A stretch of DNA of 10,839 nucleotides from a virus: the UHGV virus genome UHGV-0134099; one strand, 5' to 3'. The stretch's first letter is position 1. Every line of letters starts with the position of its first letter. A program made the translations under genes and the position numbers. Shown here piece by piece: positions 362 through 10,839 of this stretch. The notes below the pieces were generated by a model. It worked only from the letters and a program-made list of their open reading frames with translations, was not told the DNA's origin and did not search any database.

Positions 362-1135
362 TTAGATGGGCTTGAATTTCTCCCCCCACGACTTTGCCTG
401 TTCTTTAAACCTGGCGCTGACATCACGAGACCATATTTTTCCGGCAACACTCCTGGCTGTTGCCGGAACGCCGCTAAGCATGCTAAATCTTTCGCACGAT
501 TTTGTGACGACAGCGCCTGCAGCAACTATAGAACACGCTCCAATGCTTACATTTTTTGTTATGCATACATTTTGTCCTATCCAGCAGTGTGGTTCTATAA
601 CTATAGGTTTCGATGGTGAATTAACTATTTCCATTGAGTCAATGTCATAAATAGGGTGGCCATCAGTCGCGCGGATTGTGATGCCAAAAGAAAACATGCA
701 GTCATCGCCAATAATTATTGACTTATTGGTATTTGAATTAAAACCCGTTGTCCATAAATTACTTGATGTTGTTGTGACGCCATTACCTACAAAAACGGCG
801 TCTCCACTTTCAACAACTGAAATATTCACGTTAATCAATTTACAAAAATTCCCAACATATGCCACCCCATCATTGCCATACATTTGGATCTTTGTGTTTC
901 TGCAAAGCGTCTTTTCACCTATGTAAACTCTTGAGTTCTTTGAGTTTCCCATAAATGTTACAGCAATACCATTTGGTATTTCAGAGCAACCATTAAGATA
1001 AATTAAATTGCTATCATCGCCATTAACGCCAAGCTCAGAGGGTTTATATGCAGTAAATGATTCCAAATTAAAATCAGAAATGCATGTTTTTATTATTTGG
1101 AAGTTATCTTCAATAACTTTGTTTGCCTGGCTCAC
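362..1135 (-). CDS. Hexapeptide-repeat (left-handed beta-helix) acetyltransferase, LacA/Mac/WcaF/NeuO-like; candidate lysogenic-conversion enzyme
   Basis: The C-terminal half carries tandem hexapeptide motifs (IIIGDDCMFSFGITIRATDGHPIY ... IVIEPHCWIGQNVCITKNVSIGACSIVAAGAVVTKS) with the catalytic-His context (TDGHP) typical of sugar O-acetyltransferases. The ORF track starts at a TTG at 1150; I prefer the GTG at 1135, which has an AGGAG Shine-Dalgarno 6 nt upstream (1142-1146). The gene is AT-rich compared with neighbouring phage genes. Confidence 0.8.
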   Translation of the reverse strand: MSQANKVIEDNFQIIKTCISDFNLESFTAYKPSELGVNGDDSNLIYLNGCSEIPNGIAVTFMGNSKNSRVYIGEKTLCRNTKIQMYGNDGVAYVGNFCKLINVNISVVESGDAVFVGNGVTTTSSNLWTTGFNSNTNKSIIIGDDCMFSFGITIRATDGHPIYDIDSMEIVNSPSKPIVIEPHCWIGQNVCITKNVSIGACSIVAAGAVVTKSCERFSMLSGVPATARSVAGKIWSRDVSARFKEQAKSWGEKFKPI

Positions 1136-1264: not shown

Positions 1265-3352
1265 TTATGACAGATTTACGTTAACTCTGAGGTTAGCCCT
1301 GTCAGGGTTACTGTCTCCAGTATCAACGCGGTAACCAACCACAACATCGGTGGCGGTGACGTCCTTCACCCACGTCCGAACTGTTGACGTGGTTGGAGTA
1401 GACCTGTCATCTATCGTTAACTGTACTTGCCTGAAAGCTGGCGTATACAGAAATCGATGAGGGATGCTGACGGTCTTGTCTCCAGCTGTTGATATATCCA
1501 GGTTTGCGCTTAATCGCTGGCTTGTTGAATACCCAACGTTATTTACAGACGCAGAAATATTCCAGTTTTGACTCTTGCCAAGATCCGGTGAGTCGCCTGT
1601 GAATGGAACCTGCCCGGTTAACATTTCCATGGTCAGATTCACGTTTTCTGATGCAGGTTGCCCGGTAGAAACAAACCCAGTTGTGCAGCGATAAATAGAG
1701 CCGGTAATGTTGTTCCCGCGCAACGAGTTCGTTGGCGATACGCGCCTCAAACCAACTGTGCACGTTCTGGCGTTAAATATTACCGTCTGTCCTGCTCCAG
1801 CCAGATGCACCAAATCACCATTGCAGTTTTTGCCGGACACCTTCAACATGCCACCCACCGATGATGATGAGTACAGACCAATCCCTGAATACAGACTCCC
1901 TGCCTCAGTATCACCTGATGGTGCCGTTGAGTTGGAGTAGTTCAGGTCAACCTGGGCGTCATTTGTTACTACCACTGCTGTTGAGCCAACAACCCTGGCT
2001 ACCTGGGTTATCGTCCGTTTACAGGTGACACGGCAAACAAACCCGGCAGATGCCGCAATTGTAACACCATCAAAAGAGGCGTTTGGTAGCGAGTATGTCG
2101 GAATCGCACCCTTCCAGTTTGGATGTAACAGACTCAGGTTACGAATATCGAAAAATGCAGAGCCATAAGTATTGGCGCTAATGTTTACCTGCGACCTGGA
2201 GCTTTCAGCGATAATCCTACCGCCTTCTGATAATCGCACAGTGTTCCGTGTTCTGAACGCTGTACCAGACCAGGCAGCGTACGTGTGAACATCACCTATT
2301 TCAATATTTGCTCCATCAATAACAATACCGTCTACCTCTTCACCAGGGTACACAACTGATGTCGCCGCGGCTGTTTCTGCTGCCGGACGCGGCAGTATTC
2401 CGGCTCGTCCGATCCAAGCTTTTCTCAGCATCCCGTCGTTCGGCCCCTGGATGATAATTCCCTCCCCACCGAAATCACGACCAACAATACTGATGTCATA
2501 AACCGCAATTCTTGATGCGCTGTTTTCTGCACCAGGATTTTTGAACCACGCCCCCACGCCAGCAACGTTGTTTAGTAGAATATCGATAGTGAACCCGAAT
2601 CCCTGCACCTCAAGCCCATTGCCAGTGGTATTACCAAGTGTACCGGATGCAGAATTCCAGGCGCTGGTGAAGTAATTGCAATCGATGCCAAGTTTTGTTA
2701 TTTCGAAATTATTCGCATTTGCTATTACAGCAGTAGCATTTGTCCCTACTATTTGTTTTAAAGTAGTTTGCGTGTATCCAGATCCATTAATAATACATCC
2801 ATCTGGTATTGTTAGCGTGCTAAATAAATATATCCCAGGAGGTATGTGGACGTCCAGCGTATTTATTGCCGCTTGTAATGCGGATGTATCATCGTTTACT
2901 CCATCACCTTTTGCTCCGTAATACTGCGGTGTCTTTCTTAATGCTTCGTAAACACTTGACTCACCATAACCAATATTTTTAGAACCACCAGGTGAAGACA
3001 ATCGTTGCTCCAACTGATCAGGGTCATACTTCAGCACATTCGGGTAATAAAACTGCTGCACACCATACGCATCGTATACAGCCATAGAATGGCCTTGCAC
3101 AGTTACGAACTTGGCAATCTGCCCGTTATATACAGGGTAACCAGCAGCGTTAATGATGATTGGCTGTGCAACAGGAACGTGAGAACCGTCTTCGTTCTCC
3201 ACATAAACCTGGATCTGGTTTTCAGTATTTACCGGATCAGTGTCAATTTTTCCGATATAAATCTTTCCATTAGCTACGGCTTTAAAAGAACGAGCCATAG
3301 TGAAGAGTTGCGAAGGCATCGATACGATCACATTGGCTGTAATGTCTGTCAT
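1265..3352 (-). CDS. P22-type tailspike protein (gene 9 homolog): conserved head-binding N-domain, divergent receptor-binding beta-helix domain
   Basis: The N-terminus [13 protein letters not shown]...[20 protein letters not shown]...[15 protein letters not shown]...NVLKYDPDQ matches the P22/Sf6/HK620 tailspike head-binding domain and YDPDQ hinge as I remember them. The remaining roughly 580 aa are Gly/Ser/Thr/Asn-rich with repetitive beta-helix character and unlike the P22 endorhamnosidase. AGGAG-like Shine-Dalgarno (GGAG) 9 nt upstream of the ATG. Confidence 0.9.
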
Positions 3353-4651: not shown

Positions 4652-4906
4652 ATGGCTAGAGATGATCCGCACTTTAACTTCCGTATGCCTTTGGAAGTAA
4701 GAGAAAAATTGAAATTAAGAGCCGAGGCTAACGGAAGGTCAATGAACTCTGAGTTATTACAAATCGTTCAGGATGCACTATCAAAACCATCACCGATTAC
4801 AGGATATCGCGACGAAGCTGAACGCTTGGCTGATCAGCAGGCTGAGCAGTTCAAGGCTATAGTGTTTGAGACACTTAAAAAGATTTATGAAAAGGATTTG
4901 AAATGA
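4652..4906 (+). CDS. mnt: Mnt repressor (maintenance of lysogeny; represses Pant)
   Basis: MARDDPHFNFRMPLEVREKLKLRAEANGRSMNSELLQIVQDALSKPSP... matches P22 Mnt as remembered, with a ribbon-helix-helix N-terminus. GGAG Shine-Dalgarno 7 nt upstream. The stop codon overlaps the next gene's start (ATGA at 4903-4906). Confidence 0.95.
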   Translation: MARDDPHFNFRMPLEVREKLKLRAEANGRSMNSELLQIVQDALSKPSPITGYRDEAERLADQQAEQFKAIVFETLKKIYEKDLK

Positions 4907-5238
4907 GATTTCTATCACTGTTCTTGTTAGCAGTTGTCTCTTCTTCCAGTGCTGAGCTGCGCGAGCTTCAAACGGGTAATGACCTTCTTTACAACATTCA
5001 ACAAGGTAAAAAGGGTGATGATTTTTCATCGCTTTACATTACTGGATATTTGCGCGGAGTAACTGACTCATTGATACTAATTGGTTCTCTATGTCCTCCT
5101 GATGGCGTTGACATGTATCAATACACCGATATCGTTGAGAAATATCTAAACAAAAACCCAGAATCAAGAAATGAGAGTGCAGTTATACTAACCGCCCTAG
5201 CAGTAGGAAAAACATTTCCGTGCAAAAAGAATCAATAA
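4903..5238 (+). CDS. Small secreted (signal-peptide) protein, function unknown; translationally coupled to mnt
   Basis: N-terminal signal peptide MRFLSLFLLAVVSSSSA with a predicted cleavage site before ELRE. Mature protein is about 94 aa with two Cys (possible disulfide). AAGGA Shine-Dalgarno 6 nt upstream; ATG overlaps the mnt stop. It occupies the locus between gene 16 and immI where P22 has sieA. Confidence 0.7.
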   Translation: MRFLSLFLLAVVSSSSAELRELQTGNDLLYNIQQGKKGDDFSSLYITGYLRGVTDSLILIGSLCPPDGVDMYQYTDIVEKYLNKNPESRNESAVILTALAVGKTFPCKKNQ

Positions 5239-5253
5239 CAATAAGGGCTTAAA

Positions 5254-5643
5254 ATGAAATTGATTATAGCAATGGCTTTCCTTGTCTTCTCGTTTTCTGT
5301 CTCAGCAGAGTGCTGGGTCGTTGGAGATATGCACGGAATAAGCTATTCAGAACGAAATAATTTTCAACCGGAAGAAGATGGTTTTAGTGGAACATTCATC
5401 ATTAAGACAAACGGTGAAGATGCCAGTATCACATATTCTGGGACGGATGCGGGCGGCATGGCTTACAAAGCATTGTCTAAAAACTCCATCATTGGAATCG
5501 GCGCGAATGGCGAAACTCAACGAGTTATCGACTCATGGGTAATACATCCTAATGGAACAGTTTTAATGTCGAAAACCATTTCTGGTTATGGGAATATGGA
5601 TTCAACCAAAGCTTTTGTTGGAAAAGTAAAAAGAAAATGTTAA
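5254..5643 (+). CDS. Small secreted (signal-peptide) protein, function unknown; second gene of the mnt-coupled cassette
   Basis: Signal peptide MKLIIAMAFLVFSFSVSA followed by ECWVV. Mature protein is about 111 aa, Gly/Ser/Thr-rich, with Cys near both ends. AAGGG Shine-Dalgarno 6 nt upstream; 15-bp gap from the preceding gene. Confidence 0.7.
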   Translation: MKLIIAMAFLVFSFSVSAECWVVGDMHGISYSERNNFQPEEDGFSGTFIIKTNGEDASITYSGTDAGGMAYKALSKNSIIGIGANGETQRVIDSWVIHPNGTVLMSKTISGYGNMDSTKAFVGKVKRKC

Positions 5644-5667: not shown

Positions 5668-7509
5668 TTACTGCTGTGTTGCCTCAGTAGCAAGCAGCGG
5701 CCTGATGGCATTTGCAGCGTTACTCAACGCTCTTTCATAGGCTGGCGTTCCAGCTTTAGTGTTTGCCAGACGTAAGAGAGCATTCCTTGCTGCTTTGGAC
5801 TCATACAAACGCATCATTGCACCAAAGCCAGCCTCAAGCCCCATTGATACACCAAGAGTCGCAGTTGCGCCAATCGTCCTTATCCTGTTGGCTTGTGATT
5901 GCCCCGTCTGAGTTACTACATTTGCGGTGTCTGACCTTGCTGTTTGCTGTAGAACTTCATGAAGAGCATCAAGCTCTTTCATGTGCTTTCCAGAAAAAAT
6001 AGTGTTGTAAATTTCACCGCCTGACTGAGATTTCAGCTTATTAACTTCAGTGATGAACTTGGCTGGAGAGTCACCGGCCTTTTCCGCTATTTTGCTGACG
6101 TAAGCTGCACGCATAGCATCTTTCCCTTTATCATCCAGGGCGCTCCATATTCGTTTCACGTCAGATGGTTTTCTGCTTAATACAACGGTATTTATAAGTT
6201 CAGGACTGGCTTCACTGCTTGCCTTGTTGAGTTTGTTAGCAATGTTTTTATTAAGCACCTTATTATAAACGTTTGCATAATCGGAATTTGCTTTAAGGTA
6301 TTTTGCTGCGTCTGATGCACCGAGGTTTTTAGCAACTGCGTTACGAAGGTCTTTTGACATTGCATTCTCTACCATATTGGTAGCTGCTTTTGCCTGGTTG
6401 GGGAAGACCATAGCATCTCCCTGAACATTAGATCTAAATGCTGTTCTGTGCTGACGCAAGAGATCAAACGTAACATCCAAATCAGTTGCAGGGTTTGCTA
6501 ATTCTTCACGTAGGTTACGCAAGGATGTAAGCAGGCTTTGATTGGCAGACGTCCCAAGTCGTTCCTGTCTTGCGATCGCTGTATTCAGAGCATTCATGGT
6601 ATTTGTGGTATCAACTGCGGCATTACCCATTTTATTGGTGACGTCATTGATAACAGCGCCAGCGGCATCCTTCCTCCCCCTTAACGTGGTGGTCAGAGAT
6701 TTCACCACATCATCAGGGTTGTACTCACCAAAACGGTCAAAATAATTACTTACCAGCTTACTACGCGTTGCATATTGCTCCGCTCGCTTTGAGCCTGTCC
6801 CGAGCAAAGCCCCCTCGGCATCCTGAGTAAGGCCGCGAGTGAAAGCATTTTTCGGCGGGATAACATCAGATGTCATTGGTGTCACGCCCATCGATTCTGA
6901 TGTGGCAATTTTCTTCGCCACTTCTGGCGCAATATCACCTTTTATAGCCGTTATTCCACGCCCTATTCCCTTTGCTGCGGCGGAAAGAACACCCTGAGCG
7001 GCAAGGTTAACTCCGGCATTTTTAGCTGCATTTTGTGCGAAATCGCCTTTCTGATTTGCGGCCTCTGCCAATGATCCAATAGCCATGCTTCCTGCCGTTC
7101 CAACTCCTGGAACTAAATACCCACCAATTGTTTCACCGGCTTGTGCGTAGGGGTCTGTCGGTCTGTCTACTGGACGATAAACATCATCCAAAACCTTGGG
7201 TCCACCAAGCCCCTGGCTGATTGCATTAATCAGACTTGCGCCGCCCTGCAATACGTCAAATGGTATGTTTACCAGACCACGACCAGCCTGTTCTGCAATT
7301 TGCCCTGCACTTTGACCACCAGTGAGCCAATCGCCAGCTTGTTGCATCAATGATGGTTCTTCCCGTGTTGGTGCATTATTGGCCTGATTAACTGTTTGTT
7401 GCTGAACAGCCTGACCAGCAAAATACTCATCAATGGCGGTGCCAATATCTTCGGTGCTCGTACCATCAGGAAAGGTAAATGTCTTACCGTTTGCAGTTAC
7501 TTTCATCAT
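5668..7509 (-). CDS. Ejection (injection) protein gp16 homolog, P22-like
   Basis: 613 aa (P22 gp16 is about 609 aa). Gene order 7-20-16 upstream of immI matches P22. Ala/Gly/Gln-rich. Start overlaps the gp20 stop (ATGA, 7506-7509). Confidence 0.75.
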
Positions 7510-8921
7510 TCCACCGTAAATTGAATGCCTGATTTTGAGGTATATGATCCAACCTGATTCCGTGGTTCTCCTGAAGGTGTCGAATCTTGTGCTGGCGCTG
7601 CGTCAGTATTCATTGACATATACCGCTTAACGGCACTCCCCAATGATTCACCTTTTTTAACATCCAACCCCAATATCTGACCGCCATTACGCGATTGTCC
7701 TGGATTGCCATTCGCGCTCATCCACTCGGCTTTAAACTCATTAAACTGCGCGTTTCGTCGCTCAAGGTTTGCCATCGCATCAAGCCATCTTGCGACCGTC
7801 TCAGGGTTATCCATGTCAGTTGGTGCACCCTGCCGAACGATCTCAACGTCTTTATCCGTTGCGGGGCCGGGAGGTAGGAATTTAAGAACCTGACTGTTAA
7901 CAAGGGCATTTTGGCGGATGCGCAAATCACGCAATGTTGTATCGCTTCCGGTAAGTTTTGCGAACATGTTCTGTGCGTTACCGAACAAACCTGTCGTTGG
8001 TTTTTCTGCTCTGAACTGTTGAGCAAGCGCACTCATAGAATTGGCTGAGTTTGATGATGCTGTAGCATTGTTTACAGCCGTCTCGATGCCTTTTTCCATG
8101 TTTACTGACAGCTTAGGTGCTTCGCTAATCAACTGCTGAGCCTTTTCCTGTGCTTGCTGCATCTTAAACCCGAACTCTTGCTGATCCAGAGCCAAGCGTT
8201 GTGCTGCGATATTGTGTCCAGTCATTGCTGACTGATAGGAAAGGTTTTGCCCTCTCGCCTGAAGTGCTTCTCCAGCCTGATTGCTGCGGATTGTCTCTGC
8301 CAGCCTGCCTCGGTCAATTTCACGACCAGCCATCTTATCCTGAACAGCAAACGCCTTTTCTGGTCCAAGCGCACCGAGAGACATAGTAGTCAGCATGTGT
8401 GATAGCTGCTCTGGATTCTGGATACCTGTCTGAATCATCCAGTCAGCATTCGCCCCCACGCGATTTAACCCGTCCTTGTTGTCAGTAATGAATTTACTGT
8501 AGGCTTCCGGTCCCTGAGAAAGAGCGACGTTAGCCCTCATGGCTAACTCGCCCATATCGTTGCGTTGCTGCTCATTAAGACCGGAAAACGCCTGTTGTGC
8601 CTGTGCAACAAACGCTGGATTTTCCTGGGCAAACTTAAATAGTCCAGATGGATCACCAGAAGCCCATGCATCAGCGTGAACCTTATTGAACGCACTAATA
8701 GCTTTCTGTTGCTGTTCCTGATTGTAAATATCAGCAACTCCAGCCAGACCACGTAACGCGGTCAGACCAACGTTATTTGCACCTGAGCGAGCCAGTTCAT
8801 TGTTTTCGCGGATCAGGCCAAGCGTTGCGTTAATGTCGCTTGCCTTTGGCGCATTCTCATTTTGCGTACCGATGCCAGCAAGAAAACCACCAGAATTAAT
8901 ACCCTGTTGCCACGTAGCCAT
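7506..8921 (-). CDS. Ejection (injection) protein gp20 homolog, P22-like
   Basis: 471 aa, the same length as P22 gp20 as I recall. Sits between the gp7 and gp16 homologs. AAGGGG Shine-Dalgarno upstream of the ATG. Confidence 0.75.
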
Positions 8922-8930
8922 GATTACCCC

Positions 8931-9593
8931 TTAATAAAGCAGTGAACCAAGCAGACCGATACCAGCACCGATACCAGCACCCCACGGAGTTGATGAACCA
9001 ATTAATTTCGCAAGTCCAGCCCCAGCAATAGCACCAGACGCACCTCCGCCAATAGCAGATTGCATTGCTGATGGTCTGTTGGCATTTGCCGCTGCAAGAG
9101 CCGCACTTTGCTGCGAAATCTGACTCATGTTGTTGGCATATGTCTGCCCGGCGTTTGCCTGACCTTGCAGTGCGCCAAGACCAATGTTTGCCAGATTCTG
9201 GTAGTTGTTCATCTGACCAGACAGCCACTGCTGACCAAGCGTTGGTGCGATTGTTGCTAACTGATTACCGGTTGCGGTGGAACCCAATCCACCTGTTGCT
9301 TCCGCTGCCGCCAGACTCTGATAGCGAGCCTGACCAGCAAGATCTTTGTACTGCTGAGAGTTGTAATACTGGTTAAGTGCCTGACCTTGCCCTTCCAGAG
9401 ACGATAAGTTCTCGAGGCTGCCGACATACTTATCAGCCAGAGGAGTAAACGGCTTTAGGTTATTCATGATGGTGTTGAACTGCTGATTTTGCAGGTCTGC
9501 TGCATACTTCGTAAGCGTCGTCTCAGCACCGTCTGGCAGATCCTGATATTCCTGAGAGGATAGTGGACACCAAATATGGTGGACGCTATCCAT
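8931..9593 (-). CDS. Ejection protein gp7 homolog, 5' end interrupted by the IS66-family insertion (ORF as drawn is probably a truncated or chimeric gene)
   Basis: Gly/Ala/Gln-rich C-terminal region and position match P22 gp7. The ORF's ATG (9593) overlaps the IS tnpA start (9592) on the opposite strand, so the first codons are encoded by IS DNA. The native gp7 5' end and the upstream late genes must lie beyond the IS, outside the window. Confidence 0.6.
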   Translation of the reverse strand: MDSVHHIWCPLSSQEYQDLPDGAETTLTKYAADLQNQQFNTIMNNLKPFTPLADKYVGSLENLSSLEGQGQALNQYYNSQQYKDLAGQARYQSLAAAEATGGLGSTATGNQLATIAPTLGQQWLSGQMNNYQNLANIGLGALQGQANAGQTYANNMSQISQQSAALAAANANRPSAMQSAIGGGASGAIAGAGLAKLIGSSTPWGAGIGAGIGLLGSLLY

Positions 9594-9996
9594 GAAATCA
9601 TTAACCGCAGTGCGTAAAAAAAGCCCTAATTATCCCGTTGAGTTCAAAATCAAAATGGTTGAACTCTCGCATCGACCAGAGATCTCCGTAGCGCAACTCG
9701 CTCGTGAGCATGGGATCAACGATAATTTGCTGTTCAAGTGGCGCCAGTACTGGCGCGAAGGAAAACTACGTCCTCCTTCAACAACAGAAAACAACGTGCC
9801 TGAGCTGCTCCCGATAACACTTGATACCGAAGATGTTGTCCCTGCAACCTCCCCCCGGTCACAACCTGTAGCTGCTGCGGCACCTGAATCACTCAATATC
9901 AGCTGTGAAGTGACGTTCCGGCACGGATCACTCCGTCTGAATGGTGCCATCAGCGAAAATATCCTGAACCTGCTGATACGGGAGCTCAAACGTTGA
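9592..9996 (+). CDS. tnpA: IS66-family accessory protein TnpA (orf1)
   Basis: 134 aa with a helix-turn-helix-like segment (SVAQLAREHGINDNLLFKWRQYW) typical of IS66 orf1. Stop overlaps the tnpB start (TTGA). Confidence 0.8.
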   Translation: MKSLTAVRKKSPNYPVEFKIKMVELSHRPEISVAQLAREHGINDNLLFKWRQYWREGKLRPPSTTENNVPELLPITLDTEDVVPATSPRSQPVAAAAPESLNISCEVTFRHGSLRLNGAISENILNLLIRELKR

Positions 9997-10340
9997 TCCC
10001 ATTACCATCAGGGACCAAAATCTGGCTGGTTGCCGGCATTACCGACATGCGAAACGGCTTCAATGGTCTGGCCGCAAAGGTGCAGACGACGCTGAAAGAC
10101 GATCCGATGTCAGGTCACGTTTTTATCTTCCGTGGGCGTAATGGCAGTCAGGTAAAGCTCCTCTGGTCTACCGGCGATGGACTGTGTCTGCTGACCAAAC
10201 GGCTGGAGCGCGGCCGCTTCGCCTGGCCGTCAGCCCGGGATGGCAAAGTGTTCCTCACACCGGCACAGCTGGCGATGCTCCTTGAAGGTATCGACTGGCG
10301 GCAGCCTAAAAGACTGCTTACGTCACTGACTATGTTGTAG
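9993..10340 (+). CDS. tnpB: IS66-family accessory protein TnpB (orf2)
   Basis: MIPLPSGTKIWLVAGITDMRNGFNGLAAKVQ...FIFRGRNGSQVKLLW...GLCLLTKRLE matches the highly conserved IS66 Orf2 family. Apparent TTG start overlapping the tnpA stop. Confidence 0.85.
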   Translation: MIPLPSGTKIWLVAGITDMRNGFNGLAAKVQTTLKDDPMSGHVFIFRGRNGSQVKLLWSTGDGLCLLTKRLERGRFAWPSARDGKVFLTPAQLAMLLEGIDWRQPKRLLTSLTML

Positions 10341-10388
10341 GCCTCTTTATCCTGGTCGACGCTGAATGAGCCTGGTAATATACCCGGT

Positions 10389-10839
10389 ATGAACAGCTTA
10401 CTTCCTGACGATATCGATGAACTGAAACGTCTCCTTGCCGAACAGGAGGCGCTGAACCGTGCCCTTCTGGAAAAGCTGAACGAGCGTGAACGCGAAATAG
10501 ATCACCTGCAGGCGCAACTGGATAAGCTGCGCCGGATGAACTTCGGCAGCCGCTCCGAAAAAGTCTCCCGCCGTATCGCGCAGATGGAAGCCGACCTTAA
10601 GCAGTTGCAGAAAGAAAGCGATACCCTTACCGGCCGGGTGGATGACCCGGCCGTGCAGCGCCCGCTGCGGCAGACCCGTACCCGCAAACCGTTCCCTGAA
10701 TCACTTCCCCGTGACGAAAAACGGCTGCTGCCGGCAGCGTCATGCTGCCCGGAATGTGGTGGTGCGCTGAGTTACCTGGGTGAAGATGCCGCCGAACAGC
10801 TGGAGCTGATGCGCAGCGCCTTCCGGGTTATCCGGACAG
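10389..10839 (+). CDS. tnpC: IS66-family transposase TnpC (orf3), N-terminal 150 aa only; continues beyond the window
   Basis: Open frame from the ATG at 10389 to the window end: MNSLLPDDIDELKRLLAEQEALNRALLEKLNEREREIDHLQAQL (leucine-zipper-like coiled coil), then CCPECGG zinc-ribbon motif, typical of IS66 transposase N-termini. Absent from the ORF track because no stop is reached. Confidence 0.8.
   Translation, partial: MNSLLPDDIDELKRLLAEQEALNRALLEKLNEREREIDHLQAQLDKLRRMNFGSRSEKVSRRIAQMEADLKQLQKESDTLTGRVDDPAVQRPLRQTRTRKPFPESLPRDEKRLLPAASCCPECGGALSYLGEDAAEQLELMRSAFRVIRT

Follow-up and report, generated by a model that had tools for sequence, protein, structure and literature searches.

The P22/HK620-like (Lederbergvirus-type) prophage of E. 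coli 1368KP has very probably (we would put it at about 93%) been grounded by a recent insertion of an IS66-family element in gene 7. The insertion, the two ends of the element, the breakpoint and a gp7 that can be restored in silico are all directly observed, and the phenotype is predicted by analogy with P22. In the scenario that we favour, a complete element recently transposed into codons 40-42 of gene 7, antisense to the late operon, making the usual 8-bp target duplication and leaving gp7 in two pieces, a 41-codon 5' stub and a 192-codon 3' fragment. The prophage would in effect be grounded, with its lysogen-expressed genes intact.

The window analysed here is the whole 10,839-nucleotide stretch of virus genome UHGV-0134099, which is 100% identical over its full length to the E. 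coli 1368KP chromosome (NZ_CM173843.1). Positions beyond its end are given on a stretch of the source chromosome, L001, in which the position equals the window position plus 11070. The prophage lies between ybhB and ybhC, beside the bio operon (about 3167400-3208600 of NZ_CM173843.1), the neighbourhood of the lambda attachment region, and it carries a tyrosine integrase and an excisionase at its far end. On the late-operon strand, from right to left, the RefSeq order is gp14 (DUF2824), a gp7 5' pseudogene, the IS, a gp7 3' pseudogene, gp20, gp16, the mnt/arc/ant region, the tailspike and an acyltransferase, while tnpA, tnpB and an IS66-like ISKpn24-family transposase are annotated on the opposite strand. 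The small and large terminase, portal, scaffold, coat, gp4, gp10, gp26, gp14, gp20, gp16 and tailspike genes are all annotated as intact. Besides the IS, the prophage has two minor lesions, both in non-morphogenetic genes: a stop inside a theta-subunit-like gene and the truncation of a hypothetical gene.

The features that define the insertion in the window are the following:

8931..9510, minus strand: gp7 C-terminal fragment, residues 40-231 and, at 8931-8933, the stop codon; a pseudogene missing its N-terminus in RefSeq
9503..9510, no strand assigned: left copy of the target duplication CATACTTC; the right copy, L001 23035-23042 (window coordinate 11965-11972), is outside the window
9511..9532, plus strand: IS left terminal inverted repeat GTAAGCGTCGTCTCAGCACCGT, matching the right end at 8/8 of the first 8 nt and 15/22 of the whole
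9511..10839, plus strand: left 1329 bp of the 2454-bp IS66-family (ISKpn24-like) element, which ends at L001 23034 (window coordinate 11964)
9592..9996, plus strand: tnpA, IS66 accessory protein of 134 aa (HTH_Tnp_1, PF01527; NCBIfam IS66 TnpA models)
9993..10340, plus strand: tnpB, IS66 Orf2-like accessory protein of 115 aa (PF05717, E=1.6e-38; NF033819), with a 4-nt overlap with the end of tnpA
10389..10839, plus strand: 5' portion of the DDE transposase gene tnpC, which is intact over its full length (512 aa, L001 21459-22997; PF03050, E=3.1e-104)

The left boundary of the IS falls at 9510|9511, to the left of 9593 rather than to its right. Homology to P22-like phages and prophages reaches as far as window 9510 (query position 580) and no further, with 97.3% identity to UPF_BP1 and 95.7% to HK620, the latter figure over the 580 nt of gp7, and IS copies found elsewhere are matched from window 9511 (query position 581) onward. 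From its first base there (GTAAGCG) to its last base past the window end, the element measures 2454 bp. It starts with GTAAGCGTCGTC... and ends with ...GCACGCTTAC; its terminal sequences are GTAAGCGT/ACGCTTAC, and both ends open with GTAAGCGT. Terminal inverted repeats starting 5'-GTAAGCG are a hallmark of the IS66 family. By direct alignment of the two ends, those of the present element are imperfect, and an automatic repeat finder did not report terminal inverted repeats, the perfect stretch being just 8 nt. The target duplication on the two flanks is itself perfect over its 8 bp. An 8-bp direct repeat (Table 2) and a multi-ORF structure are described for IS66-family elements (PMC3281130).

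The three-ORF layout of the IS66 family is present in full, with tnpA, an overlapping tnpB and a large tnpC, all intact. The product of tnpC matches DDE_Tnp_IS66 (PF03050), PF13005 (E=7.9e-14), PF13007 (E=1.2e-13) and PF13817 (E=7.4e-17), carries zf-IS66, LZ_Tnp_IS66 and the IS66 C-terminal element, and scores 460 bits on NF033517 (cutoff 180). On these sequence features the element is a complete member of the IS66 family. The name ISKpn24 is taken from the RefSeq/PGAP annotation, and refers to a group of tnpA-tnpB-tnpC elements that are common on enterobacterial chromosomes and plasmids. With this group the 1368KP element shares three intact ORFs with IS66 Pfam/NCBIfam domains, GTAAGCG termini, imperfect inverted repeats and the 8-bp duplication. 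Plasmid copies so annotated, from Cronobacter, Enterobacter and Klebsiella, align exactly to positions 1-2454 with 99.3-99.6% identity; there is no structural difference, and the insertion site alone is peculiar to 1368KP.

The IS query found five matching places in the 1368KP chromosome. One of these is a second copy at NZ_CM173843.1 257783-260236 (L005 1501-3954), which is identical at 2454/2454 positions and is flanked by an 8-bp duplication of its own, GAAGCCCC. Identity between the two loci ends at the proposed termini, apart from 1 nt of chance extension at the left end; at the right end there is none. An identical sister copy, each copy with its own 8-bp duplication, points to recent transposition, and judging from the sequence the element is apparently active. 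The second copy adjoins silE and copM in a silver/copper resistance region, where it truncates a hypothetical gene. A further IS-disrupted gene in strain 1368KP was seen about 4 kb outside the prophage (L004 14613-16823), where an anion permease gene has been broken in two by an IS1A, each half now a pseudogene.

On the gene strand the duplication reads GAAGTATG and lies inside codons K40-Y41-A42 of gp7. When the IS and one copy of the duplication were deleted in silico, the reading frame was exactly restored, yielding a 696-nt ORF for a gp7 of 231 aa. The reconstructed protein matches WP_000964865.1, an intact gp7 of E. coli MBT-5, at 100% identity and the gp7 of HK620 at 97%; its residues 1-229 fall on profile positions 1-229 of 230 of the Pfam model P22_gp7 (PF25688, E=2.6e-132). 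The alignment of the fragment to intact gp7 proteins, which the preliminary description had proposed as a way of finding the breakpoint, places it at codons 40-42, and its proposed search for inverted repeats and an 8-bp duplication was likewise successful. The boundary, the duplication, the three IS proteins and the restoration of gp7 by excision together bear out its central claim of an IS66-family insertion inside gp7.

Like gene 7 of P22, HK620 and other Lederbergvirus members, the reconstructed gene encodes a protein spanning the P22_gp7 model and stands in the order 14-7-20-16, as in HK620; the 1368KP gene differs in being split at codons 40-42, with neither piece complete. The 5' stub comprises 41 codons plus 1 nt and runs into the right end of the IS, for a predicted product of 84 aa. 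The 3' fragment has 192 codons (residues 40-231); it has lost the native start with its ribosome-binding site, and with them the propeptide (20 residues) and the first 19 residues of mature gp7. RefSeq lists the halves, on either side of tnpA-tnpB-tnpC, as a 'DNA transfer protein' missing its C-terminus and one missing its N-terminus.

Of 5426 complete E. coli genomes, 819 have the empty site when an 800-nt query across the uninterrupted junction is counted at >=80% coverage, as do 101 phage records; among the matches listed, the query was colinear in one piece with 100% coverage. The filled junction is carried by strain 1368KP alone. Gene 7 also has an internal near-repeat, KYAAEAQKYAAD (TCTGCTGCATACTT + TCTGCGGCATACTT), found at window 9496-9509 and L001 23049-23062; the IS entered its promoter-distal unit, and CATACTT now occurs three times around the insertion.

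The sequence could in principle look this way if contigs had been mis-joined over a repeated IS, with gp7 uninterrupted in the actual genome. The five matching places, at least two of them identical copies, and the labelling of the record as whole genome shotgun lend themselves to such an artefact. However, a mis-join would create no target duplication, whereas here the gp7 halves flank the IS, correctly ordered and oriented, the 8-bp duplication is perfect, removal of the IS restores the reading frame exactly, and the other copy has different flanks with a duplication of its own. Given the perfect duplication and the exact restoration of the frame, we reject an assembly artefact as extremely unlikely.

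What the insertion would do to the phage can be judged from the P22 literature. P22 particles can be assembled without the ejection proteins, but DNA delivery is absolutely dependent on them; deletion of gene 7 halves the gp16 content of particles and strongly lowers that of gp20, and residues 1-20 of gp7 are cut off by a host protease before assembly (PMC4992974). Mature gp7 forms a dodecameric channel, extracellular and in the outer membrane, in which residues 29-229 are resolved (bioRxiv 10.64898/2026.09.03.749273). By analogy with P22 genetics, loss of gp7 in 1368KP would cause DNA delivery to fail and would impair the loading of gp20 and gp16 into the virion, so that induction would be followed by cell lysis and the release, probably, of DNA-filled but non-infectious particles. 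The preliminary description had expected a prophage defective for virion production, a wording that is imprecise since the P22 ejection proteins are not needed for assembly, and non-infectious particles are the expected outcome (PMC4992974). A packaging defect caused by the extra 2.46 kb was also considered and rejected as a likely limit. The ybhB-ybhC interval measures about 41.3 kb with the IS counted in, and the P22 headful is about 43.5 kb; since the former is the smaller, the DNA can probably still be packaged. Rare cells might regain gp7 through precise excision of the IS via the 8-bp repeats.

The annotation of the window includes one further reading frame across the left end of the IS:

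8931..9593, minus strand: chimeric ORF of 220 aa, made of 28 IS-encoded residues (MDSVHHIWCPLSSQEYQDLPDGAETTLT) followed by gp7 residues 40-231, without a Shine-Dalgarno sequence

The annotated N-terminus (MDSVHHIWCPLSS...) comes from the left end of the IS, which contributes the first 83 nt of the frame (27 full codons and 2 nt of the next), and the peptide across the IS-gp7 junction reads ...GAETTLTKYAADLQ.... The preliminary description was right that this N-terminus is IS-encoded and that the true 5' end of gp7 is displaced; codons 1-41 now lie about 2.45 kb away, beyond the IS. It was also right that tnpA starts at 9592 on the plus strand and the gp7-like ORF at the ATG at 9593 on the minus strand, the two sharing the palindrome CATG (9591-9594). 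This ATG is the first past an in-frame TAA at 9702-9704. The pattern as a whole did not arise by chance; its single coincidental element is the shared start, the ORF finder having extended the gp7 frame into the IS, and the chimeric ORF is probably not a real gene.

The IS left end could nevertheless be imagined to provide a promoter, a start codon or both for a functional gp7 in which the 28 IS residues are joined to residues 40-231, with a viable phage as the result. An ATG-started frame is indeed open over 8931-9593, and the residues that it retains include most of the structurally resolved part of the channel (29-229 or 35-181; bioRxiv 10.64898/2026.09.03.749273). Against this, a scan for sigma-70-like sites found none on either strand over 8800-10839 and the entire IS with its flanks, where 1.4-1.7 were expected in shuffled sequences; the scan is a crude consensus match, and its result is an absence of support and not a proof of absence. 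Shine-Dalgarno pairing at the ATG at 9593 amounts to -2.9 kcal/mol, compared with -7.4 at the native gp7 start, -8.5 for gp20 and -6.2 for gp16. The first 80 codons of the 220-aa ORF offer just one more in-frame start, an ATG at 9467 (0.0 kcal/mol), and neither of the two has a Shine-Dalgarno sequence. In addition, the fusion ATG arises by accident, as the reverse complement of the tnpA start, and the fusion is without the propeptide and 19 residues of mature gp7 (processing as in PMC4992974). We therefore regard a functional substituted gp7 as very improbable, and the outward promoter and start codon that the preliminary description had suggested found no backing. The more specific idea that the 28-residue leader takes the place of the gp7 propeptide and N-terminus, a fusion translated from late read-through transcripts being packaged and forming a working channel, seems to us just as improbable; if it were true, the prophage would be infectious with a 2.45-kb IS cargo, and gp7 residues 1-39 would be dispensable. 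Low-level synthesis of a chimeric or an internally initiated gp7 fragment is possible.

The remaining reading concerns the genes downstream of the insertion, of which two more encode ejection proteins:

7506..8921, minus strand: gp20 ejection-protein gene, intact (PF16928, E=4.5e-117); a strong Shine-Dalgarno sequence of its own, AAGGGG, lies 9 nt past the stop codon of gp7
5668..7509, minus strand: gp16 ejection-protein gene, intact (phrog_770 'DNA transfer protein', E=3.8e-280)

RefSeq calls the 613-aa gp16 homologue a 'hypothetical protein', and it has no match in Pfam. The preliminary description has gp7, gp20, gp16 and the tailspike separated by the IS from the late promoter and the genes upstream. 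Physically this holds, as 2.45 kb of IS now sit between the two groups, antisense to late transcription; taken as a polar block, the insertion would cut off all four genes from the late promoter, so that no complete virions are formed. Three weak terminator-like hairpins do occur within the IS on the late-transcript strand, but shuffled sequences give 2.5 +/- 1.5, and there is no excess. Late transcription in P22-like phages is antiterminated, a Q/gp23-type late antiterminator gene is present in the prophage, and an antiterminated polymerase suppresses IS polarity. Moreover, gp20 and gp16 each have their own ribosome-binding site, and all three ejection proteins are dispensable for assembly (PMC4992974); among the four genes, only the tailspike would, if lost, stop tail completion. 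Strong polarity on the downstream late genes is possible but not indicated, and we hold a polar block to be unlikely, if less remote than the readings discussed above. The grounding of the prophage by the loss of gp7 itself remains our preferred explanation.

As the preliminary description had stated, the lysogen-expressed genes are whole: the mnt/arc/ant cassette and the acyltransferase (its acetyltransferase) are intact ORFs, and so is the tailspike. Between mnt and gp16, downstream of mnt and on its strand, are two small genes:

4903-5238, plus strand: Rap1a/Tai-family immunity protein (PF18602, E=9.7e-15; phrog_3870, function unknown)
5254-5643, plus strand: protein of 129 aa, N-terminus signal-peptide-like by eye, no Pfam hit (phrog_2651, function unknown)

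Immunity proteins of the Rap1a/Tai type neutralise type VI secretion amidase effectors, and the interval between mnt and gp16 is the place of sieA in P22. The two genes may be lysogen-expressed protection genes. The tailspike (1265-3352, minus strand) has a P22 head-binding domain (residues 1-113) and the start of a pectate-lyase-like beta-helix. After it, at the very end of the prophage beside ybhB, comes a hexapeptide-repeat acyltransferase (362-1135, minus strand), which may serve as a conversion gene that modifies the O antigen and is paired with the specificity of the tailspike.

Enterobacterial prophages inactivated by an IS ('grounded' or cryptic prophages) are a known counterpart. Like them, the 1368KP prophage has one IS in an essential virion gene and is otherwise complete, and it has likewise kept its lysogenic-conversion and immunity genes. 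It differs in that the event looks very recent, the sister IS being identical and the morphogenetic genes not further decayed.

The insertion is already annotated in the public record, where RefSeq marks both gp7 halves as pseudogenes, and it is an ordinary event of little import beyond strain 1368KP. It does account for the foreign N-terminus of the gp7 ORF annotated in the window. It represents a clean and recent grounding of a prophage by an IS of which the chromosome has another copy in a silver/copper resistance island. By analogy with P22, the 1368KP prophage would be unable to spread as an infectious phage, while its lysogen-expressed genes, including the mnt/arc/ant region, the Rap1a-like immunity protein and the acyltransferase, persist. 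The strain might thereby be of use as a natural gene 7 knockout for studies of the ejection proteins.
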